From NCBI GenBank assembly GCA_964342395.1, contig CAYFFJ010000003.1, positions 2,181 to 66,180 of the forward strand: a DNA stretch of 64,000 nucleotides, given 5' to 3'. This DNA comes from an uncultured Hydrogenophaga sp. (GTDB lineage Bacteria; Pseudomonadota; Gammaproteobacteria; Burkholderiales; Burkholderiaceae_C). The position numbers and the translations under genes are program-made. Positions within the stretch are counted from its first letter, which is position 1. Each line of letters opens with the position of its first letter. The notes beneath the pieces are model-generated. The model was not told where the DNA came from, ran no database searches, and worked only from the letters and a program-made list of their open reading frames with translations. Below, one piece after another: positions 20,250 through 64,000 of the stretch.

Positions 20250-20506
20250 TGGCCTTCGTGACGGTCGGCGGCGGCGTACAGGTCTTGTGCAAAGCCAGGA
20301 TCGCGGTCTTGCCAATCGAGTGCCATCGCGCGGATCTGTTCGGCCTCTTCGTGGGGCGTCAGCGTTCGGCTGGGCTTGGGCGCCGTTGCAGAAGCCCACT
20401 GCGCACCCAGCCAGCCCAGCACGCGCGCCACCAGCGAAGCTGCGCCCGGGCGAGCGGGGGTGAAAACGGGGGCGTGGCCGGAATTTGAGAGGGTGACGCT
20501 GGACAT
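20246..20506 (-). CDS. hypothetical small protein (86 aa)
   Basis: Start MSSVTLSNSG is preceded by GGAG, and GC3 is high like the neighbours. I recognise no family. The longer ORF 20246..20638 would overlap the upstream gene end. Confidence 0.35.
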   Translation of the reverse strand: MSSVTLSNSGHAPVFTPARPGAASLVARVLGWLGAQWASATAPKPSRTLTPHEEAEQIRAMALDWQDRDPGFAQDLYAAADRHEGQ

Positions 20507-20615
20507 CGTGCGCTCCGAGGAGAATTTGTTGCGGTGCACAAAGTATAGGGTAAACCCTAGTTTTATGTGCATCCGTTCGTCCAGATCCCTCGGCCGCGTG
20601 TCGATTTGGGCCTGT

Positions 20616-21641
20616 TCACAGCACCACGGGTTGCCCACTCAGGAACGACCGCTTGAGTGCGTGAGCGATGCGGGTGGCCTCGATGGCGTCTGTGAGATCG
20701 CCCGGCAGGGTGCCGGTGCCTCGACAGGCGGCCACAAACGCCCGCATCTCCTGTTGAAACGCCTGTTCAAAACGCGCATAGAAGTCGGGCAATGCCGGGT
20801 GGTGCACGCCCTGCGCCGAGCGGAAGGTGGTGGCACCCAGCTGGGCGCCGAATCCCACCTGCACCGTGCCTTCGGTGCCGATCACTTCCAGCGTGGTCTC
20901 GTGGCCGTGGGGCATGGTGCGGCTGGCGTACAGCACGGCGCGGGCGCCGCCCTCGAACTCGATGATGGCCAGGCCGTTGTCCACGTCGTCGTGCTGCGCG
21001 AGTTCCGGGTGGACCGCGTTGGTGCCGCTGGCGAACACTTTGGTGGCCTTGGGGTTGCCCAGCATCCAGCGGGCCAGATCGATGTCGTGCACGCTGCAGT
21101 CGTTGAAGATGCCGCCCGAGTTCGGGGAATAGCGCACGAAGGTGCCGCTGGGGTCGAGCCGATCGCAGGTCTGCGAGCGCACCAGGAAGGGCCGACCCAG
21201 CTCGCCGCGTTCGATGGCCGCGCGGGCGCGCACCAGATCGGGGTCGAAGCGCCGCTCGAAACCGACCATCACCACCTGCGCCGGGTGCGCGGCCGCGAGC
21301 CCGGCCAGGGTTTCGCAGGTGGCGACATCGAGCGACAGCGGCTTTTCCACGAACACATGTTTGCCGGCGCGCAAGGCGGCCTCGAACTGGCAGGCGTGTT
21401 CGGTGGTGGGGCTGGCCAGCACCACGGCGTCGATATCGGCGGTGGTGATGAAGTGGCTGAAATCCTGGTGGAGCTGCGTCACGCCCAGCTGGTCGCTGGC
21501 CCAGTCGAGGGCGCCGGGGCTGGGGTTGCAGGCGGCGGCAAGGCGGGCACCGGGCACGTGGTGGGCCAGGCATTCAGCATGGCGGCGTCCGAGACGGCCG
21601 AGGCCGACGATGCCGATGTTCAAGGGATTGGCGGATGTCAT
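20616..21641 (-). CDS. Gfo/Idh/MocA-family NAD(P)-dependent oxidoreductase, paralog B
   Basis: GIVGLGRLGRRH and FVEKPLSLDVATCE. Long identical blocks are shared with 7412..8434: RAGKHVFVEKPLSLDVATCE, FLVRSQTCD, CSVHDIDLARWMLGNPKAT, YASRTMPHGHETT. Confidence 0.85.
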   Translation of the reverse strand: MTSANPLNIGIVGLGRLGRRHAECLAHHVPGARLAAACNPSPGALDWASDQLGVTQLHQDFSHFITTADIDAVVLASPTTEHACQFEAALRAGKHVFVEKPLSLDVATCETLAGLAAAHPAQVVMVGFERRFDPDLVRARAAIERGELGRPFLVRSQTCDRLDPSGTFVRYSPNSGGIFNDCSVHDIDLARWMLGNPKATKVFASGTNAVHPELAQHDDVDNGLAIIEFEGGARAVLYASRTMPHGHETTLEVIGTEGTVQVGFGAQLGATTFRSAQGVHHPALPDFYARFEQAFQQEMRAFVAACRGTGTLPGDLTDAIEATRIAHALKRSFLSGQPVVL

Positions 21642-21656
21642 CGGGAGGTCCTTTGT

Positions 21657-22832
21657 TCAGTTGAGGCGGCGTTCGGCCAGCGTGTCCATGTGGCGCTGGA
21701 ACTGTTCGGGTGGCCAGGCTGCTTGCAGCGCGCGCTGCATCACCGCCTGCGGGCTCTCGGGGGCCAGGCCGCCGAGCGGCGGGTCGCGGTCCAGGTTGGT
21801 CGGGAAGGCGTAGCCCTCGGCACTGGCGGCCACGGCGCGCGCGGCGGCAGGCCAGTCGAGCTGGCCGTCTTGCAGCAGGGCCAGCAGCTGCGGGTACAGG
21901 GCCAGCGCCATGCGGTGCCTGTCCACGGTTTCCATTGCACGGCCGAAGGCGGACGACACCTGCAGCAGGTTGGCCATGCGCTGGATGCCCGCCGAGCGGT
22001 TCTCGCCCGCCGCGTGCAGCAGGGCCGGGTTGAAAAACACCGCGTCGCCCTTGGCCAGTGGCAGCTGCACACGGTGCTGTTCAAAGTGCGCCCGGAAGTC
22101 GGCGCGCTCGGCCACCAGGTAGCCGTGACTGAACTTATGTGAGTGGGGCAGGTAGAGCGTGGGCCCGCTCTCCAGCGGCATGTTCACGTGCGCCACCGCA
22201 CCCTGCAGCGTCAGCATGGGCGAGAGGCGGTGGGCATGGGCCGGGTAGGCCTCGGCTTGCGCGGCGGTGCAAAAGCCCAGGTGGTAGTCGCGGTGGGGCA
22301 TCTGCGCCGCGCCGCCGGGCCGCACGTTGTTGACCTGCGAAGTCACCTGGTAGCCCGGGCCCAGCCAGGCGTGGCTGGCGAGCGCGATCATGTCGTTAGC
22401 GTAATAGCGGGCAAACAGGGCCGGGTCGAGCAGGCAGAGTTTTTCCAGCGCGTTCCACACCCGGTCGTTGGCCCCGGCCTTAGCGAAGTGGTCGCCGCCG
22501 GTTTGGCCGTGGCGCTCGGATTCGATGATGGCCTGGAAGCGCTGGGAGACAGCATCCACCAGCGCGCAGTCGGGCAGGGCGCCCTGCAGCACCAGGATGC
22601 CGGGGCCGTGTTCCCAGACCCAGGCCCATTCGGCCATCAGGGCCGAACGGAAGCCGTCATTGCCGAGCAATTGCGTGCGCACGGCAGCGCAGTCATAGAC
22701 CGGCACGTCGTGGGTGGTGTGCGCGGCGTTCGGGCAGTCCCGCGGATCGGTCTTCTGGGCGAGAACGGCTTGCAGATCGTCGAGGCGTGCGTCGCTGGCG
22801 CGCAGGCCGTGCCGGTGAAGGGGCTGGGTCAT
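21657..22832 (-). CDS. phytanoyl-CoA dioxygenase (PhyH)-family Fe(II)/2-oxoglutarate oxygenase
   Basis: Start MTQPLHRHG follows GGAGAC. HxD motif in MPHRDYHLG and a distal His in ALLHAAGEN. It lies 16 bp upstream of Gfo paralog B. Confidence 0.65.
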   Translation of the reverse strand: MTQPLHRHGLRASDARLDDLQAVLAQKTDPRDCPNAAHTTHDVPVYDCAAVRTQLLGNDGFRSALMAEWAWVWEHGPGILVLQGALPDCALVDAVSQRFQAIIESERHGQTGGDHFAKAGANDRVWNALEKLCLLDPALFARYYANDMIALASHAWLGPGYQVTSQVNNVRPGGAAQMPHRDYHLGFCTAAQAEAYPAHAHRLSPMLTLQGAVAHVNMPLESGPTLYLPHSHKFSHGYLVAERADFRAHFEQHRVQLPLAKGDAVFFNPALLHAAGENRSAGIQRMANLLQVSSAFGRAMETVDRHRMALALYPQLLALLQDGQLDWPAAARAVAASAEGYAFPTNLDRDPPLGGLAPESPQAVMQRALQAAWPPEQFQRHMDTLAERRLN

Positions 22833-57347: not shown

Positions 57348-57422
57348 CAGCCACCATCACAACGGGTGTCCATTGTCATCCGGGCACGTGCCGCCTGCGG
57401 CCCGGTGGCTAAACTGCGCGCC

Positions 57423-57920
57423 ATGCACACGCCAGACACCCCCTCATCACCCCTGACCCACTTTGACACCCAGGGCCAAGCCCACATGGTGGACGTGGGG
57501 GCCAAGGCCCACACACACCGCGTGGCCGTGGCCGAAGGCCGCATCACCATGCAACCGGCCACCCTGGCCCTGGTGACCAGCGGCACCGCCAAAAAAGGCG
57601 ACGTGCTGGGCATTGCCCGACTGGCCGGCATCATGGGCGCGAAAAAAACCGCCGACCTGATTCCCCTGTGCCACCCCATCGCCCTCACCCGGGTGGCCGT
57701 GGCATTTGAAGTGCTGGCCGAGCTGAATGCGGTGCGCTGCACCGCCACCGCCGAAACCACCGGCCCCACCGGGGTTGAAATGGAAGCTCTCACCGCCGTG
57801 CAAGTGGCCCTGCTGACCATTTACGACATGTGCAAAGCGGCCGACCGGGGCATGGAAATGACGGGGGTGCGGCTGCTGGAGAAGCGGGGGGGGAAGAGCG
57901 GGCATTTTGTGGCGGGGTGA
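57423..57920 (+). CDS. moaC: cyclic pyranopterin monophosphate synthase
   Basis: [44 protein letters not shown] and [11 protein letters not shown]. Confidence 0.9.
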
Positions 57921-57936
57921 TGCCCACTGCGTCAGC

Positions 57937-58710
57937 TCAAAAACCATCCAACGGAACAAATTTCAAAGGCTGGGCGGTTGTCGAATCCATCAACAGCGTC
58001 CACGCAATCCCCCTGCGTGATACCACGGGCAGCCAACTGACCTGCGAGTGTTGGCGCTGCAAATTCAAAACAGCGTTATCCAACAGCAATTTTTGAGAAG
58101 GGTGTTTGCCATAGAGCACGTCCAGCGCCTGGGCGCGTGACAACACATCGTGCTGAAAATTGCTGTACTCCCCCCATCGATCAGCGCGCATAAATGCTTC
58201 GTTACCTGCCAGTGATTGGTTCACTTGGTCCAGGTAGTCAACGTCCTCTGGTTTGGCCGTTCGGCTTCCAATCAATACCGGCCCACCCAACCAAGACGGA
58301 GACGGCACCATGGCTGGCTTTTTCGCAAGCCCAATTTCATCCAGCTCAGACATCGTCAACACCTGGAAGCGGTCCACGTCGTAAATCAGATACACCGGCC
58401 GCGCAAGCCAAACGGTTTGAAGTCCATAGGCCAAAGCGCCAAGCTGCAAAATGGCAACAAAACCAAGGTCCAAGACCAGCTCGCGCCTTGGTTTTGCAGG
58501 ATTGAACAAAACCAGCGTCAACAAAGGTCCGCACACCACATCCACGCCCATAAGGATGAAGAAGAGTTCGAAGCCCCCCAACATTTCGGCGTAGGGCGTT
58601 GGGTAAAGCCGCCCAAATACAAGCCACGCGGCAACAGCAGCTACCGCAAATGACCCCAACAAATGCAAACCCGAAGCACGGGCCGCCGCACGCAATCTGA
58701 GCCTGTTCAT
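57937..58710 (-). CDS. TfpX/TfpZ(FimB)-like type IV pilin accessory membrane protein
   Basis: Immediately downstream of the pilin gene, with three N-terminal TM segments and visibly lower GC than the surroundings. The family call is from memory of TfpZ/FimB gene context. ATG 58710 is preferred over the TTG at 58725. Confidence 0.5.
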   Translation of the reverse strand: MNRLRLRAAARASGLHLLGSFAVAAVAAWLVFGRLYPTPYAEMLGGFELFFILMGVDVVCGPLLTLVLFNPAKPRRELVLDLGFVAILQLGALAYGLQTVWLARPVYLIYDVDRFQVLTMSELDEIGLAKKPAMVPSPSWLGGPVLIGSRTAKPEDVDYLDQVNQSLAGNEAFMRADRWGEYSNFQHDVLSRAQALDVLYGKHPSQKLLLDNAVLNLQRQHSQVSWLPVVSRRGIAWTLLMDSTTAQPLKFVPLDGF

Positions 58711-58727
58711 GAATAAGTGCCCCAAAT

Positions 58728-58756
58728 TAAAAAAGGGGCCTAAGCCCCCTTTAAAT
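58728..58756 (-). terminator. intrinsic terminator/attenuator after the pilin gene
   Basis: On the minus strand: AAAGGGGGC-tta-GGCCCCTTTTTTAATTT. This is a hairpin plus U-tract lying between pilA and the accessory gene. Confidence 0.7.
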
Positions 58757-58768
58757 GGTCAGAGAAGA

Positions 58769-59308
58769 TCAACGGCACTCTGCAGGCGCGTACTTGGCAA
58801 CCATCGTCGCGGTATTGGCAACACCCGCGACAACTGCTTTGCCGCTTGCGTAGCAAGTCCAAATAATGCTTGCAGCAGGAATAGTACCTGCAGTCAATGC
58901 CGCATTATTTGAAGAAGGCGCCAACACCAACGTTTGACCAGAAGCTGCCGCAGTGTATGTCACCGTGATCACGCCAGTGGCGGTTGCGCCAAACACTGAA
59001 GTAACGTTTTTCGAATTGGTAATGCCGCCGTTCAAGCTACAGTTTCCTGCGGCTGTGCAAAACGTGGTCCCAGCTGCGTTTATCGGGATACCCTTGAAAA
59101 AACCACCTAATGCGGCCGTGGTGCCATTGGCAGCGTTGTCGGCCACCACGTTCTTCAGTCCTGAGCCCAAGACCATGCCTTCCGTCACACGCGCACGCAC
59201 GGTGTAATCCTGGTAAGCAGGCAAAGCCACGGCGGCCAAAATACCGATGATCGCGACGACGATCATCAATTCGATCAGGGTGAAACCCTTTTGAACCATC
59301 TGTTTCAT
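58769..59308 (-). CDS. pilA: type IVa major pilin
   Basis: Prepilin leader MKQMVQKG followed by [27 protein letters not shown], and a C-terminal Cys...Cys disulfide loop (CYASGKAV...APAEC). Confidence 0.95.
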
Positions 59309-59353
59309 GAAAACTCCTTGAACACGGCGTCGGTATTGACGTGGCGACCTTAC

Positions 59354-59368
59354 AGCATTTGCCGTGCC
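59354..59368 (-). promoter_or_regulatory. sigma-54 (-24/-12) promoter candidate for pilA
   Basis: The minus strand reads GGCACGGCAAATGCT, with canonical GG-N10-GC spacing, about 45 nt upstream of the pilA ATG. Type IVa pilin genes are classically RpoN/PilR dependent. Confidence 0.55.
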
Positions 59369-59446
59369 CGCCCCAAATGGCCTTCCTTTGACCCATTTGG
59401 GGGCAATGTGGGCTGGAATGTGCGATTTTTTGTCACTTTCAGCATC

Positions 59447-59512
59447 GGCACGGTGACGAAAGATGGCACCTAGCGCTTGCTTACAAACAACTGTTCACTA
59501 CAGCTATTTGAT
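59447..59512 (-). repeat. interspersed repeat copy R8 (supplies the TAG stop of the GAF-GspE gene)
   Basis: In forward orientation: CAAATAGCTGTAGTGAACAGTTGTTTGTAAGCAAGCGCTAGGTGCCATCTTTCGTCACCG. This is the most diverged copy. Confidence 0.5.
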
Positions 59513-61879
59513 GCACACCGTGCGCACCTGCTTCAAATCGGTCAGGCCCATCAGCACCTTTTCCATGCCGTCCATCTTCAGGCTGCGCATCCCTGCTTCC
59601 ACGCAGGCCGTGAACAGCTGGGCCACGCGGGCGCGCTCTTGGATGAGCTGGCGGGTGGTGTCGTCTGCCACCAGCAGCTCGTGCAAGCCCACGCGGCCTT
59701 TGTAGCCCGTGTCGCGGCATTTGTCACAGCCTTTCGCGCGGTACAGGTGCAGGCGGCCACTGGCGTCGCCATACAGCCGAGCCCAGCCATTCAACAACTC
59801 TTGCGCTGCGTCTGCACGGTTGGCGGCCCACGCGGGGGTGTGGGCGAGTTCCTGCGTGTACTCGGCCACAAACAGGCGCAACTCGTCTGCGGTGGGCTCA
59901 TAGGCTTCTTTGCAGCTGCACAGGCGCTTGGCCAGGCGCTGGGCCAGGATACCCAGCAGGGCGTCGGCAAAGTTGAAAGGGTCCATACCCATGTCGAGCA
60001 GGCGGGTGATGGACTCGGGCGCTGAATTGGTGTGCAGGGTGGAGAACACCAGGTGCCCGGTGAGCGAGGCTTCCACGCCCATGCCGACGGTTTCTTTGTC
60101 GCGGCTTTCGCCCACCATGATGATGTCGGGGTCGGCCCTCAAAAAGGCCCGCATCACCAGCGCGAAGTCGATGCCGGCTTTTTTGTTCACCTGCACCTGC
60201 CGCAGCCCTTTTTGGGTGATTTCCACGGGGTCTTCGGCCGTCCAGATTTTGGTGTCGGGCGTGTTGAGGTGTTTGAGGATGGAGTGCAGCGTGGTGGTTT
60301 TGCCCGAGCCGGTGGGGCCGCACACGTAAAACAGGCCGTAGGGCTTGCCAATGGTGGCTTCGAGCCGTTGGCGGTTGTGCTCGGTCAACCCCAATTGCGC
60401 CAGGGCAATGGGCTCGCCCGCCGTCAGCAGGCGCATGACCACGTCTTCCACCCCGCCCGCAGACGGCAATGTGGCCACCCGCAGCTCGATGTCGAGGGGG
60501 CCGAATTTTTTGAATTTGATTTTTCCGTCTTGTGGCTTGCGCTTTTCGGAAATGTCCAAGTCGCACATGATTTTGATGCGGGCCACAAAACTGTCGCGGT
60601 AGGCAGCGGGCACTTCGGCGTAGGGCTGCAAAGAGCCGTCGATGCGAAAACGGATGCTGGCCTTGGCTTTGCCAGGCTGGGGCTCGAAGTGGATGTCAGA
60701 CGCGCCTTGGCGGTGGGCATCGACAATGACTTTGTTGACAAATTTGACCAGCTCGTTGTCTTGCGCGGCGCTCGCCAGCCCTGGGTCGGGGGTGTCGTCA
60801 TCGTCCTGCGACAGCGGGGTGTCGGTCAGCATGTCCTCAGGGCCGTAGGACTCTGGCCCCGCGCCCAGCAGCTGCGCCACGGTTTGGGCAAATTCGCTGG
60901 CCGTGGTCACGGCAAACACCAAGCGGGGAAACTGCGGGAACACCTGGGGCACCAGCTTGCCGTTGCGGGCGTCTTCGGGGTCGACCGCCAGAATGAGCAG
61001 GCCCTCGGGGCCCTCTTCCAGGGGCAACCACTGGCACTCGGCCACAAAGTCGGTTTTGAGCTTGGCATGCAAGGCTTCGGAGCGGATGCGCTTGGCATCG
61101 AAACCCACGTAGGGCGCCCCAAAAAAATGCGCGAGCGAGCGCCCCAGTTGCGGGGCGGTGACCTGCATGTCGGCCATGAGCACCTGCTCCACGTGCACGC
61201 GGTCTTCGCGGGCCTTGGCCATGCACCGGGCCAGCTCGTCGGCAGACACCACGCCATCTACCACCAAGCCGGCGTATTTCGACACCGCAGGCCACGCCAC
61301 CGTTTGGGCCGCCAACACGCGGTGGCGAATGGCGGACGACAGCGTTTGGCACAGCTTGGTCACACCCTCCTGGGCCAACGCAGAAAAAGCGCGGCCATCA
61401 CGGGCGTTCACCACCTGCAGCACGCCCACCAGGTCAGACCCGCGCAAGATGGGGGCCACCAGCATTTGATGGGTGCGGTAGCCCGAGCGGCGGTCCACTT
61501 CTTTCAGAAAACTCAAGGCTGGGTCGATTTGCCGCAGGGCGGCCTCGTCATACACGTCGGCAATGTTCAGGGTTTTGTGCGTCAGGGCCACATAGCCCGC
61601 AATGCTTTGGGCTGTGATGGGCAGTTTCAGGTCTTTGGCGGTGTTGAGCCCGGTTTTCACACGGGAGACGATGGCTGTTTTGTCGTCGCTCAACACATAC
61701 AGGGTCAAGCGGTCGGCGTTGAGCAGGCCGCAAATGTCCTGGCTCACCTCCACCATCAGCTGGTCCAGGTTGTCGGTGTCGTGGATGCGGGTGGTGACCA
61801 CCTGCAGGTCGCGAAAAAACCGGGCCTCGGCCTCAATATCCCGGGCGGGCCCGTTCACAGCACCCACCTGTGGCCGCAA
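59504..61879 (-). CDS. GAF-domain-fused PilB/GspE-family type IV filament assembly ATPase
   Basis: 791 aa.
- The N-terminal ~190 aa are GAF-like (LNIADVYDE...FLKEVDRRSGYRTHQMLVAPILRG).
- A GspE_N-like domain follows.
- The ATPase core has Walker A GPTGSGKTT, Walker B DPDIIMVGESRD, His box GHLVFSTLHTN and a CxC...CxxC zinc motif.
- An alternative GTG start at 61858 would form GTGA with the upstream stop. Confidence 0.85.
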   Translation of the reverse strand: MRPQVGAVNGPARDIEAEARFFRDLQVVTTRIHDTDNLDQLMVEVSQDICGLLNADRLTLYVLSDDKTAIVSRVKTGLNTAKDLKLPITAQSIAGYVALTHKTLNIADVYDEAALRQIDPALSFLKEVDRRSGYRTHQMLVAPILRGSDLVGVLQVVNARDGRAFSALAQEGVTKLCQTLSSAIRHRVLAAQTVAWPAVSKYAGLVVDGVVSADELARCMAKAREDRVHVEQVLMADMQVTAPQLGRSLAHFFGAPYVGFDAKRIRSEALHAKLKTDFVAECQWLPLEEGPEGLLILAVDPEDARNGKLVPQVFPQFPRLVFAVTTASEFAQTVAQLLGAGPESYGPEDMLTDTPLSQDDDDTPDPGLASAAQDNELVKFVNKVIVDAHRQGASDIHFEPQPGKAKASIRFRIDGSLQPYAEVPAAYRDSFVARIKIMCDLDISEKRKPQDGKIKFKKFGPLDIELRVATLPSAGGVEDVVMRLLTAGEPIALAQLGLTEHNRQRLEATIGKPYGLFYVCGPTGSGKTTTLHSILKHLNTPDTKIWTAEDPVEITQKGLRQVQVNKKAGIDFALVMRAFLRADPDIIMVGESRDKETVGMGVEASLTGHLVFSTLHTNSAPESITRLLDMGMDPFNFADALLGILAQRLAKRLCSCKEAYEPTADELRLFVAEYTQELAHTPAWAANRADAAQELLNGWARLYGDASGRLHLYRAKGCDKCRDTGYKGRVGLHELLVADDTTRQLIQERARVAQLFTACVEAGMRSLKMDGMEKVLMGLTDLKQVRTVCIK

Positions 61880-62670
61880 TGGAGTGCTGAAATGGCCCAG
61901 GGCTTCAAGCCAACGGCTTCACGTGTCTGGTTGAGCTGAGAGATGTCTTGCATGATGGATTCGGCTTCGGCCGGTTTCATGTGGCTGATGTGGATGGGGC
62001 AGCTCATGTCAGGTCGCATCAAGGCCAGTTGGGCGGCCAGCGTGCTGGGGCACAGGTGTTGGCTGAGATGGGCCAGTGCGGCCTCGCGCTCGCTGAAGGC
62101 GGTTTCCATCACCAGCACACCCACCGGCAGCTGGTTGACCCGGTGCCAGAACGCAGGATTGTGGCCCGTGTCACCTGAAAACACCCAATGGGGACGATGC
62201 GGCCCCCGGGCCACCGCGTAGCCCACGGCGGCCACGGTGTGGGTGGCAGGCAAGGCCTCCACGTGCACGCCACCCAGCTGCAGTTGTTGCCCCGTGGCCA
62301 GGGGGTGAAAGCTCACGAAGGGGGCATCAGGGCTGGGCAGGCGGGAAAAATCGGGCCATATCAGGTCGTTGAACACGTGGGCACGCAGCGCGGCCAGGGT
62401 GTCGGGCAAGGCATGCACTTGCAGGGGACGTCCGCGCCGGGTGCCCACCGCATCCAGCATGAGTGGCAGCGCGGCAATGTGGTCCAGGTGCGCGTGGGTC
62501 AGCACCACGTGCTGAATGGCAGCCATTTCGTCCAGGGTAAGGTCGCCCACACCGGTGCCCGCATCGACCAGCAGGTGTTCGTCCACGAGAAACGACGTGG
62601 TGCGGGCACCGCGTGCAATGGCCCCTGCGCAGCCCAGTACCCTCACGCGCAGCGATGCAGGGGTTTTCAT
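61855..62670 (-). CDS. class II 3',5'-cyclic-nucleotide phosphodiesterase (metallo-beta-lactamase fold)
   Basis: Signature HAHLDHIAALP, about 270 aa, with no signal peptide. Its ATG overlaps the cyclase stop (ATGA). Confidence 0.75.
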   Translation of the reverse strand: MKTPASLRVRVLGCAGAIARGARTTSFLVDEHLLVDAGTGVGDLTLDEMAAIQHVVLTHAHLDHIAALPLMLDAVGTRRGRPLQVHALPDTLAALRAHVFNDLIWPDFSRLPSPDAPFVSFHPLATGQQLQLGGVHVEALPATHTVAAVGYAVARGPHRPHWVFSGDTGHNPAFWHRVNQLPVGVLVMETAFSEREAALAHLSQHLCPSTLAAQLALMRPDMSCPIHISHMKPAEAESIMQDISQLNQTREAVGLKPWAISALHCGHRWVL

Positions 62671-64000
62671 TTGGAGTCAAACCGTGTCGTGCCATCCCAG
62701 TGGGGGCTGGGGGGATGGGCTCGCGCGAGCTGCACGCGTTGGGCGTAAAAGGCATACAGCGGGCGCGATGGGCACAGCCGCATCACGTTCAACAGGTGCA
62801 CGTCACAGGCGTCCCAGTCTTGGGCCCGGTACGCCTTGGGCACGGGCGCCCAAAGCCGAAGCTCTTCTTGACGCGCACCGGGTGTGGCCCCGGCCTCAGG
62901 GCGCAACAGGGTGTAGACGGTGACGGTTTTTTCCCGGCCTTTCACGGCCACGGTGTCCACCTCTTGCCACGCAAAGTCGGGCGCGTGGCGGCGGGTGTCT
63001 TCGCTCACCAGCCAGTCCACGCCGTAATGGCGGGTCAACCCCTCCAACCGGGCGGCCAGGTTCACGGCGTCGCCCATCACGGTGTAGCTGCGGCGGATGT
63101 CCGAACCCATGTCGCCCACCAGCATGGGGCCGGTGTTGAGCCCAATGCCCACGCCCACGGCGGGCCAACCTTTGGCGGCGTGTTCGCGGTTCAGTGCGTC
63201 GATGGCGTCCACCATGTCCAGCGCCGCACGCACGGCCATGCTGGCGTGTGCCTGCGCATCGACCGGGGCGCCCCAGAAAGCCATGATGCAGTCGCCCATG
63301 TATTTGTCGATGGTGCCCTGGTGGGCACTCACCACATGGGTCAAGCGGCTGAACACGGTGTTGAGCAGGGTCTGCAGTTGTGCCGGCGGCATGTTTTCAG
63401 ACAGTTGGGTGAAGCCGCGCATGTCGCAAAACATGACCGTCAACTCCCGTGAGGCTGCCTGCATGTTGTAGCGATCAGGGTCTTTGACCATTTCGTCCAC
63501 CAGCTCAGGGGGCACGTAGGTGCCAAACAACTGGGCCAATTCCCGCTTGGAGCGGCTTTCCACAAAATAGCCATAACTCATGTTGAGCGCAAACGCCGTC
63601 AAGGCCACGAACAACGGTGATGCCAGGGGCAAGACCAGCCCTTGAGCGGTGTAAAGCCACATGTCGAGCGACACCGCAGCCAGCAACACCCCCACACTCA
63701 ACAGCGTGGCGGGGGTAGCCCCCAACCAGGGCAAGGTCAAGGCCAGCAACAAACCCACCACCAGGGTGATCACCAGCTCATAGCCCAATGCGTAGTCGGG
63801 CTTGACCAGCATACGACCGTCCAGAAAAGCCGACAGCAGGTTGGCATGCACTTCCACGCCTGGGTATACCAGACCCACCGGCGTGGCACGCAAATCCAAC
63901 AAGCCAGGGGCGGTGGTGCCCACCAGCACCAATTTGTCTTTCAACGACGCGGCGGCCACCCGCCCGGTGAGCAAATCGGTGGCAGACACATACCGAAACC
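62667..64000 (-). CDS. CHASE2-sensor class III adenylate/guanylate cyclase; 3' part, gene runs off the right edge
   Basis: The frame is open to the window end. It has a CHASE2 C-terminal portion (LVLVGTTAPGLLDLRATP), TM helices and a cyclase domain (TVMFCDMRGFT, IDKYMGDCIMAFWG, GDAVNLAARLE). Confidence 0.85.
   Translation of the reverse strand, partial: FRYVSATDLLTGRVAAASLKDKLVLVGTTAPGLLDLRATPVGLVYPGVEVHANLLSAFLDGRMLVKPDYALGYELVITLVVGLLLALTLPWLGATPATLLSVGVLLAAVSLDMWLYTAQGLVLPLASPLFVALTAFALNMSYGYFVESRSKRELAQLFGTYVPPELVDEMVKDPDRYNMQAASRELTVMFCDMRGFTQLSENMPPAQLQTLLNTVFSRLTHVVSAHQGTIDKYMGDCIMAFWGAPVDAQAHASMAVRAALDMVDAIDALNREHAAKGWPAVGVGIGLNTGPMLVGDMGSDIRRSYTVMGDAVNLAARLEGLTRHYGVDWLVSEDTRRHAPDFAWQEVDTVAVKGREKTVTVYTLLRPEAGATPGARQEELRLWAPVPKAYRAQDWDACDVHLLNVMRLCPSRPLYAFYAQRVQLARAHPPSPHWDGTTRFDSK

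Follow-up and report, generated by a model that had tools for sequence, protein, structure and literature searches.

A pilin locus with a PilB-like ATPase bearing a GAF domain of the cyclic-nucleotide-binding type, next to genes for a predicted adenylyl cyclase and a putative phosphodiesterase

The window discussed here, a stretch of 64,000 nucleotides (nt) from an uncultured Hydrogenophaga species (contig CAYFFJ010000003.1), holds at one end a set of genes, all on the minus strand (57937-64000), that looks, from its sequence, like the pilin locus of a Comamonadaceae-type betaproteobacterium with an accessory PilB-like extension ATPase bearing a GAF domain of the type found in phosphodiesterases (PDEs) and CyaB cyclases. 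Genes for a predicted adenylyl cyclase and a putative cyclic-nucleotide phosphodiesterase immediately precede the ATPase gene. This GAF-ATPase architecture is real, widespread and uncharacterised, and it is kin to the pilus motors that are gated by second messengers; direct gating by cyclic AMP (cAMP) would be a plausible mode of control. That a cyclic mononucleotide (cNMP) directly gates the motor through the GAF domain seems to us an evenly balanced proposition. The larger proposal, in which the motor is switched by cAMP through its own GAF domain, with a CHASE2 cyclase supplying the nucleotide and a coupled phosphodiesterase confining it, and in which the motor integrates cNMP and phospho-threonine inputs, is offered tentatively, at somewhat below even likelihood. 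A previous reading of this DNA, made from its letters alone (the sequence-only reading below), had proposed a coupled cyclic-nucleotide module wired to a type IV filament motor; the domains, the residues and the synteny bear this out in part, and the proposal needs enlarging to the genes for a kinase, a PP2C phosphatase and an FHA protein.

A GAF domain in front of a PilB-like ATPase

The genes were identified through a listing of open reading frames (ORFs) and through Pfam and NCBIfam profile searches of the window proteins. These place five co-directional minus-strand genes at the following positions, given with the domains of the ATPase:

62667..64000, minus strand: 3' two-thirds of a gene for a predicted CHASE2-linked class III (IIIb-type) adenylyl cyclase, running past the window end (Pfam)
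61855..62670, minus strand: putative class-II-like cyclic-nucleotide phosphodiesterase of the metallo-beta-lactamase fold, 271 aa (Pfam, PDB match, AlphaFold2 (AF2) model)
59504..61879, minus strand: GAF-fused PilB/GspE-type assembly ATPase, 791 aa from TTG 61879 or 784 aa from GTG 61858
61298..61849, minus strand: GAF domain of the ATPase (aa 11-194), with long helices at both its N- and C-terminal flanks
60845..61267, minus strand: PilB-type N-terminal domain of the ATPase (N1D/GSPII, MshEN-like), with the cyclic di-GMP (c-di-GMP) motif absent
59525..60766, minus strand: N2D and catalytic C-terminal domain of the ATPase (Pfam T2SSE, 379 bits)
58769..59308, minus strand: type IVa major prepilin, 179 aa (Pfam N_methyl and Pilin)
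57937..58725, minus strand: TfpX/TfpZ-like pilin accessory membrane protein (NF041437), with ATG 58710 as the likelier start

The sequence-only reading had noted that the ATPase carries an extra N-terminal domain resembling the nucleotide pocket of cNMP-binding GAF domains, and profile, structure-database and fold searches all agree. Pfam recognizes a GAF domain at aa 38-184 (39.8 bits), and the best match in the PDB is the tandem GAF of Anabaena CyaB2 (1ykd, E 1.3e-23), both domains of which bind cAMP, followed by the GAF domains of PDE6, PDE10A, PDE2A and PDE5 (E 1e-9 to 1e-5). GAF domains not known as cNMP binders are weaker matches (PtsP, 2e-4; phytochrome, 0.07-0.7), with the exception of the HD-GYP GAF 4mcw (1.7e-9). 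The stretch LNIADVYDE...VDRRSGYRT...APIL aligns with both CyaB2 GAF domains. An AF2 model of the domain (predicted local distance difference test, pLDDT, 83.9; predicted template-modelling score, pTM, 0.80) has 4mcw, 1ykd, 1mc0, 2zmf and PDE6 as its top Foldseek matches, the probability being 1.00 for 1ykd, 1mc0, 2zmf, PDE6 and 5w10, and the fold search also retrieves the cAMP-bound GAF domain of Lcd1. The loops S92-I-A-G95 and D129-R-R-S-G-Y-R-T136 align with FAG and D-Q-Q-N-G-Y-R-T of CyaB2 GAF-B. These loops, which match the ligand-contacting ones in the PDE2A and CyaB2 structures, are invariant in all of 83 sequences (D129 and S132-G-Y-R-T136 in the case of the second), and they can be recognized in family members of only 25-35% identity. 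Sequence and model thus both suggest a GAF domain of the cNMP-binding (PDE/CyaB) type, with a cNMP as the predicted ligand.

By sequence and by fold, this is the same GAF subtype as in Anabaena CyaB1 and CyaB2 and in mammalian PDE2, PDE5, PDE6 and PDE10, with which it has in common the IAG and D-x-x-[ST]-G-[FY]-x-T loops and a position N-terminal to the catalytic module that is regulated. The differences lie in the output, which is a cyclase or a phosphodiesterase in those enzymes and a secretion-type ATPase here, and in the arrangement, their GAF domains being tandem whereas the window protein has a single one, with a 7-residue insertion (helix 112-118) and with ligand binding that is predicted. 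Four metagenome proteins of the family (P0148, P0151, P0161 and P0165; 940-1125 aa) have two or three tandem GAF domains before MshEN-T2SSE, mirroring the tandem GAF domains of the phosphodiesterases and of the CyaB cyclases.

From approximately aa 205 onward, the ATPase aligns end to end with the full-length PilB proteins of M. xanthus and Geobacter (3jc8, 5tsg, 5zfr), starting at their residues 12-30, and so the GAF domain represents an addition before a complete PilB-like protein. The Walker A motif GPTGSGKT is found at aa 521, and four cysteines are contributed by CSC (aa 654) and CDKC (aa 718), the first pair being CxC rather than CxxC. The N1D domain scores 21.6 bits against the Pfam MshEN model, below the cutoff of 23.1, and the tandem c-di-GMP motif, RLGxx(L/V/I)(L/V/I)xxG(L/V/I)(L/V/I)xxxxLxxxLxxQ (as worded in PMC10333796), is absent from the window ATPase, from 120 orthologues (0/120) and from 11 distant members of the family (0/11), according to a regular expression run without a positive control. 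With this motif absent, the usual second-messenger input of this class of ATPases is missing, and control of the ATPase by c-di-GMP was rejected on the strength of the same search, run without that control.

The cyclase and the phosphodiesterase

What the window holds of the cyclase gene encodes the C-terminal part of a CHASE2 domain (approximately 63750-64000; 66.5 bits), three predicted membrane helices and a catalytic domain (approximately 62907-63449) that matches the Pfam Guanylate_cyc profile at 93.4 bits over positions 7-181 of 183; the orthologues of this protein are 748 aa in length, and their CHASE2 domain is complete. The catalytic domain aligns at approximately 105 bits with Pseudomonas aeruginosa CyaB (3r5g) and Synechocystis Cya2 (2w01), with CyaB, Cya2 and the photoactivated cyclases all scoring 98-106 bits, and both metal Asp residues as well as the transition-state Asn and Arg are present (FCDMRGF, YMGDC and VNLAARLE align with 3r5g and 2w01). 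The Lys (IDKYMGD) and Thr (SYTVMGD) that the sequence-only reading had assigned to the adenine-specifying positions do align with the same pair of P. aeruginosa CyaB (IDKFVGD and DYTIIG in 3r5g), the Thr being replaced by Asp in class IIIa enzymes, and the guanylyl cyclase Cya2 has Glu and Gly at these two positions, which makes the prediction sound that, by its specificity residues, the enzyme is an adenylyl cyclase.

The phosphodiesterase belongs with the metallo-beta-lactamase fold (Lactamase_B_2, 58.6 bits), its metal motif HxHLDH residing in THAHLDHIAAL. The PDEase_II profile is matched at 35.2 bits (cutoff 23.7) over only positions 82-143 of 340, a stretch of 62 positions, and the NCBIfam model for cyclic-nucleotide phosphodiesterases, NF041851, gives 30.7 versus a cutoff of 400. 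The best PDB match by sequence is yeast PDE1 (4ojv), with HxHLDHI and VFNDLIWPD in common, and an AF2 model (pLDDT 88.7) also has 4ojv as its closest fold (TM 0.80), followed by Apyc1 (7u2r/7u2s), phage and bacterial Apyc1 proteins being within the top ten fold matches. Orthologues carry the NCBI name 3',5'-cyclic-nucleotide phosphodiesterase, and their precomputed Pfam matches include PF02112 and PF23023 (Apyc1). The protein thus appears to share the metallo-beta-lactamase fold of yeast PDE1, Vibrio fischeri CpdP and phage Apyc1, and with yeast PDE1 also the HxHLDH motif and the VFNDLIWPD segment; yeast PDE1 is larger (363 versus 271 aa), and the substrate of the window enzyme is a prediction. 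On sequence and model, we consider it a putative class-II-like cNMP phosphodiesterase. An anti-phage (Pycsar-like) reading, prompted by the likeness to Apyc1, was rejected in view of the membrane-bound class III cyclase with its CHASE2 domain and of the pilin-locus context. Overall, the domain assignments of the sequence-only reading (CHASE2, Guanylate_cyc, PDEase_II, GAF and T2SSE) all hold in hidden Markov model (HMM) searches, in the case of PDEase_II over part of the profile.

The three genes are tightly joined. The cyclase stop and the phosphodiesterase start overlap in an ATGA at 62667-62670, exactly as had been read from the sequence. The phosphodiesterase stop had been placed inside the first codons of the ATPase gene, and its TGA (61855-61857) does fall within the ATPase reading frame; the codon at 61879, previously read as ATG, is TTG, and the in-frame GTG at 61858 makes a GTGA with the phosphodiesterase stop. 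This GTG is the likelier start of the ATPase, because it matches the position at which a 95% identical orthologue begins (P0001, 783 aa, 'VNAPS...').

Conservation of the neighbourhood in relatives

A protein search with aa 1-370 of the ATPase against 1.84 billion representative proteins returned 163 clusters (at 50% identity) with E < 1e-30, among which are full-length GAF-ATPases with as little as 27% identity, along with versions possessing two or three GAF domains in tandem. A genome scan with the GAF and N1 region, covering one genome per species, returned at least 576 matches; its alignment was built from closer sequences, so only Comamonadaceae were returned, and the wider distribution was sampled protein by protein. 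The best 80 of these at least 576 matches come almost wholly from Comamonadaceae (Polaromonas, Rhodoferax, Ramlibacter, Caenimonas, Acidovorax, Curvibacter), and orthologues of the same architecture, 779-809 aa in length, are encoded in Polaromonas, Rhodoferax, Ramlibacter, Caenimonas and Acidovorax.

Neighbourhoods were counted at 64 loci with at least 8 kb of sequence upstream of the ATPase, almost all of them from Comamonadaceae, onto which we mapped the window proteins and the upstream proteins of L001, the locus of the closest relative. Cyclase and phosphodiesterase both lie immediately upstream of the ATPase at 50 of the 64 loci, as the sequence-only reading would have it, and at 55 of 62 loci the phosphodiesterase stop shares an NTGA with an in-frame start of the ATPase; the gap between cyclase and phosphodiesterase is usually 8-35 nt in the related loci. 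Recurring as it does in dozens of species, the arrangement is more than chance. The array of the relatives also continues upstream of what the window covers, as [TerC]-CHASE2 Ser/Thr kinase-PP2C-FHA, so that the five co-directional genes, while real, are only a part of the conserved unit that they had been taken to form. The full array, TerC-kinase-PP2C-FHA-cyclase-phosphodiesterase, precedes the ATPase at 43/64 loci, a CHASE2 Ser/Thr kinase is encoded upstream at 53/64, and a PP2C phosphatase together with an FHA protein at all 64 (64/64). In the closest relative, the CHASE2 Ser/Thr kinase, the PP2C and a two-domain FHA protein are encoded ahead of the cyclase (L001 1090-5136) with an operon-like spacing, the kinase and PP2C genes overlapping and the gaps measuring 36-41 nt; 62 other loci have a region equivalent to this one. 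As a CHASE2 kinase here precedes a CHASE2 cyclase, two different CHASE2 sensors are present in one array. One protein of 422 aa (P0185) begins as the FHA protein does, with MPKVFVLLDGVVLKEVELTQAR (compare L001 4516), and continues directly with the N-terminus of the GAF-ATPase (FEALFYKQ...); from its sequence, it looks like the product of a deletion that fused the two genes.

The phosphodiesterase-ATPase pairing is also seen in a lineage whose ATPase is 47% identical (P0125), in which an orthologous phosphodiesterase (57% identical) is encoded 4 nt upstream of the GAF-ATPase; the flanks are unrelated, with RdgC upstream and a response regulator downstream, and no cyclase is present. In a third lineage (P0130, ATPase 42% identical), a different hydrolase of the metallo-beta-lactamase type is encoded 20 nt upstream of the GAF-ATPase (L088 536-1429); it possesses a THSHWDH motif and is 25% identical to the window phosphodiesterase, and a YcaO gene lies downstream.

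Proposed mechanism

We propose that the GAF-ATPase may serve as an accessory extension motor for a type IVa pilus, co-transcribed with the cyclase and the phosphodiesterase. The CHASE2 cyclase would make cAMP in response to a cue from the envelope or the extracellular space, and the phosphodiesterase, translationally coupled to the ATPase, would reset the signal locally. Binding of cAMP to the GAF domain would then change how active the hexameric ATPase is or how it docks on the pilus platform, and polymerisation of the pilin encoded downstream would be controlled post-translationally rather than through transcription. The GAF domain would in this way replace the missing c-di-GMP input of the motor. 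In parallel, the CHASE2 kinase/PP2C/FHA branch that is seen in relatives may act upon the same motor by means of phospho-threonine. The domain identities, the catalytic and specificity residues, the conserved neighbourhood and gene overlap and the lack of the c-di-GMP motif are observed; what we infer in this scheme is the ligand, whether the regulation is positive or negative, which machine is driven, and what the kinase, phosphatase and FHA protein do.

Points against the scheme and competing explanations

A number of observations weigh against direct gating by the product of the neighbouring cyclase. At 3 of the 64 loci only one of the two enzymes, cyclase or phosphodiesterase, is found, and at 11 there is neither, and yet at these 11 every predicted contact residue of the GAF domain is invariant. 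The neighbouring cyclase is thus not the only source of input for the GAF domain, and the neighbouring enzymes are therefore dispensable for its role; going by these sequences, the GAF domain appears to be still under selection where its cyclase and phosphodiesterase neighbours have been lost. Among seven more distant GAF-ATPases, five are isolated amid housekeeping genes and lack a cyclase or phosphodiesterase gene in their vicinity, one of the five being that of the Nitrospirota candidate Nitrobium versatile. In Variovorax sp. MHTC-1 (L090 7609-13300), the order is TerC-PP2C-FHA-phosphodiesterase-pilin-PglL; cyclase, kinase and GAF-ATPase are absent from this locus, in which tblastn detected no remnants of cyclase or ATPase, and the phosphodiesterase must therefore have a role independent of the GAF-ATPase. 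The PP2C and FHA genes, being more constant partners of the ATPase (64/64) than the cyclase and phosphodiesterase genes (50/64), suggest that control by phospho-threonine is at least as important. Synteny within one family is, moreover, partly inherited and not independent evidence. As to the proteins themselves, the NKFDE motif (N-K/R...F-x3-D-E) is degenerate in the window GAF domain (N158-A...F165...A169-Q170), most orthologues having N-N...F...E-x at this site, while it is present in the CyaB/PDE enzymes and in distant members of the GAF-ATPase family, which retain N-K...F-x3-D-E. The NKFDE motif is structural, not ligand-contacting. The ATPase also scores below the equivalog cutoffs of NCBIfam, both for PilB (TIGR02538, 465.4 versus 675.65) and for GspE (TIGR02533, 425.1 versus 630.25), and neither pilC nor pilM adjoins its gene. 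By its sequence, it is a member of the PilB/GspE family not assignable to the PilB or the GspE orthologue group. Judging from the loci compared, the pilin locus may best be described as a modular regulatory region, with PP2C and FHA as a constant core and with kinase, cyclase, phosphodiesterase and GAF-ATPase as frequent, separable additions.

These observations can be accommodated in more than one way. The GAF domain may bind another small molecule, or only dimerise or autoinhibit, with the cyclase and phosphodiesterase signalling elsewhere, for example to a CRP/Vfr-type regulator of pilin transcription, and merely co-located with the ATPase. The 11 loci that lost both enzymes without any relaxation of the GAF residues, the orphan status of the distant GAF-ATPases, the Variovorax phosphodiesterase encoded beside a pilin in the absence of the ATPase and the degenerate NKFDE-type motif would all fit such an explanation, as would the presence among the fold matches of GAF domains not known to bind cNMP (PtsP, 3trc; HD-GYP, 4mcw) and the fact that cAMP has been established to act on pili through transcription, via Vfr (PMC11656802). 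We nevertheless regard it as rather unlikely: by far the strongest relative of the domain is a proven cAMP-binding GAF (1ykd, E 1e-23, versus 2e-4 for PtsP), the 4-nt overlap of phosphodiesterase and ATPase genes is maintained at 55/62 loci and their pairing recurs in a second lineage, and cells usually have other cyclases, so that a local loss leaves cAMP available. It is less probable still that threonine phosphorylation constitutes the main switch, with the FHA protein reading a mark set by the kinase and the PP2C and recruiting or activating the ATPase, and with the cNMP branch as an optional modulator gained in certain lineages, an explanation that is compatible with the scheme favoured here. 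The constancy of PP2C and FHA (64/64) and of the kinase (53/64) relative to the cyclase and phosphodiesterase (50/64), the operon-like spacing in L001 (the kinase/PP2C overlap and the gaps of 36-41 nt) and the persistence of PP2C and FHA without the ATPase, which indicates that they belong to the pilin locus itself, are in its favour, but the ATPase yielded no phospho-acceptor site, no literature was found on control of PilB by FHA proteins, and the invariance of the GAF pocket would be left unexplained. A conserved threonine in the acidic linker was considered as the FHA target and discarded, as none is conserved.

Finally, the ATPase may power another type IV filament machine whose genes lie elsewhere, such as type II secretion, a competence pseudopilus or a system of a kind not yet known, in which case its adjacency to the pilin gene would be incidental. 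The scores against the GspE and PilB models are nearly the same and fall below the respective cutoffs, the structures of PilF, EpsE and PilB are about equal as matches (318-335 bits), pilC, pilD and pilM are not found in the 64-kb window, and no pilin adjoins the ATPase gene in the P0125 lineage and in more distant ones. Against this stand the type IVa pilin and accessory genes directly after the ATPase in the window, the pilin gene being next after the ATPase in most of the Comamonadaceae loci, the end-to-end alignment with full-length PilB, N1D included, and the fact that the authors of the Ramlibacter genome count the protein as one of the PilB paralogues that serve one pilus machine; we consider a different machine improbable, and the most improbable of these explanations. 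Direct gating through the GAF domain remains the reading that we favour, with the kinase, PP2C and FHA genes added to it.

Relation to known systems and significance

The GAF-ATPase locus is not categorically new, its closest kin being the MshE and PilB ATPases gated by c-di-GMP, from which it differs in the sensor domain and in the predicted messenger. MshE of V. cholerae and PilB of M. xanthus and C. perfringens belong to the same family of hexameric extension ATPases, with the same N1D-N2D-CTD (C-terminal domain) core, and they receive a nucleotide messenger at the N-terminus and act upon it post-translationally, as the window ATPase would. They sense c-di-GMP via the MshEN (N1D) motif, however, whereas the window ATPase lacks the motif and has an extra GAF domain before N1D, its predicted messenger is a cyclic mononucleotide, and the synthase and the hydrolase are encoded in the same operon.

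The best-known connection of cAMP with type IV pili is the Pil-Chp/CyaB/Vfr circuit of P. aeruginosa, in which a class IIIb cyclase with the Lys/Thr pair, similar in its catalytic domain to the window cyclase (approximately 105 bits), is tied to the pili. The sensor of P. aeruginosa CyaB is MASE2; that of the window cyclase is CHASE2, and a dedicated phosphodiesterase gene overlaps the motor gene. In P. aeruginosa cAMP acts on transcription via Vfr (PMC11656802), whereas in the window the predicted receptor domain is within the motor itself. Additional extension motors have precedents: Acinetobacter baylyi employs two, PilB and TfpB, on one pilus machine (PMC11656802), and Ramlibacter is reported to possess three PilB paralogues that serve one pilus machinery (PMC3164672), both comparable to the situation proposed here, with an additional PilB paralogue beside a canonical one. 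The window ATPase is no member of TfpB, which it matches partially (385 bits versus a cutoff of 850), and it differs from TfpB in carrying a GAF sensor. As to the upstream genes of the relatives, the PpkA/PppA/Fha1 system of P. aeruginosa H1 type VI secretion likewise has genes for a membrane Ser/Thr kinase, a PP2C and an FHA protein beside the machine that they control; in the array of the relatives, the machine would be a pilus ATPase and pilin locus, and the sensor of the kinase is CHASE2, these genes being known from the relatives and lying outside the window.

The known gates of pilus extension ATPases are c-di-GMP and partner proteins, and cAMP is known to act on pili only via transcription factors. 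A 2024 review of PilB regulation nowhere uses the term 'GAF', and the only role that it gives to cAMP is the one exerted through Vfr (PMC11656802); the genome paper on Ramlibacter of 2011 lists a GAF-PilB fusion as an annotation line (PMC3164672). Literature searches found no functional study of GAF-PilB and no report of type IV pili being controlled by FHA or PP2C proteins, in agreement with the statement of the sequence-only reading that it knew of no characterised example of such wiring. If correct, the proposal would present the first post-translational control of a type IV filament ATPase by cAMP and a natural case of local cAMP signalling in bacteria, and, through a motor that itself senses cAMP, an envelope sensor would gain a further way to act on pilus extension, one that is fast and post-translational. 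That the PP2C-FHA pair is present at every one of the 64 pilin loci may in turn point to control of type IV pili by threonine phosphorylation in the Comamonadaceae-type relatives. The family is a large one, as judged by the number of scan matches and clusters and by its tandem two- and three-GAF versions, some of its hosts are culturable (Polaromonas, Ramlibacter, Caenimonas, Rhodoferax), the three proteins are of a size that suits biochemical work, and for comparison there are natural variants in which cyclase, phosphodiesterase, kinase or ATPase is missing.

The pilin cassette and other features of the window

Two smaller elements flank the pilin gene:

59354..59369, minus strand: candidate sigma-54 -24/-12 element GGGCACGGCAAATGCT (pattern scan, 2 mismatches)
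58731..58752, minus strand: intrinsic terminator hairpin 3' of the pilin gene, with a 9-bp stem of which 5 pairs are GC, followed by a T run

The pilin is recognized by the N_methyl (37.8 bits) and Pilin (47.5 bits) profiles and has a class III signal peptide, an N-methylation motif and a globular domain. Its gene is separated from that of the ATPase by a spacer of 195 nt and is followed by the strong terminator, so the pilin and TfpZ genes are probably separate transcription units and not co-transcribed with the three signalling genes. The sigma-54-like element lies within this spacer, 46 nt upstream of the pilin ATG, with 2 mismatches to TGGCAC-N5-TTGCW. Such a distance from the start is the usual position for pilA promoters. 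Over the whole window the pattern shows no enrichment (43 matches versus 63 expected), and we regard the element as a lead only with respect to the pilin promoter. Scans for sigma-70 promoters and terminators detected nothing apart from the pilin terminator. No other pilus or cNMP genes were found among ten large ORFs elsewhere in the window, which are of a housekeeping nature (UvrA, transhydrogenase, MnmA, a LysR regulator and others). One ORF of 588 aa (20376-22142, plus strand) has a coding-like GC content at third codon positions (GC3, 0.72) and an unusually high one at first positions (0.82), and it matches no Pfam family at E <= 1e-5.

In the closest relative, the 95%-related locus L001, the stretch between the pilin accessory gene and an M48 peptidase gene (L001 12420-15902) carries, around MoaC, genes for a protein of 85 aa, a PIN-domain protein and an EAL-domain protein of 755 aa, none of which is found at the corresponding place of the window (57400-57940). 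The TfpX/TfpZ-like accessory protein matches NF041437 over profile positions 3-240 of 240 at 182.8 bits, just under the cutoff of 200. The GC content of the pilin and TfpZ stretch (57900-59400) is 0.53-0.54, versus 0.62-0.65 on either side, and the accessory gene found at this spot varies among the relatives, being TfpZ-like in L001, L005 and L069 and encoding a PglL-type O-oligosaccharyltransferase in L002 and L090. By analogy with the pilin groups of P. aeruginosa, the pilin and its accessory gene look like a swappable pilin cassette.

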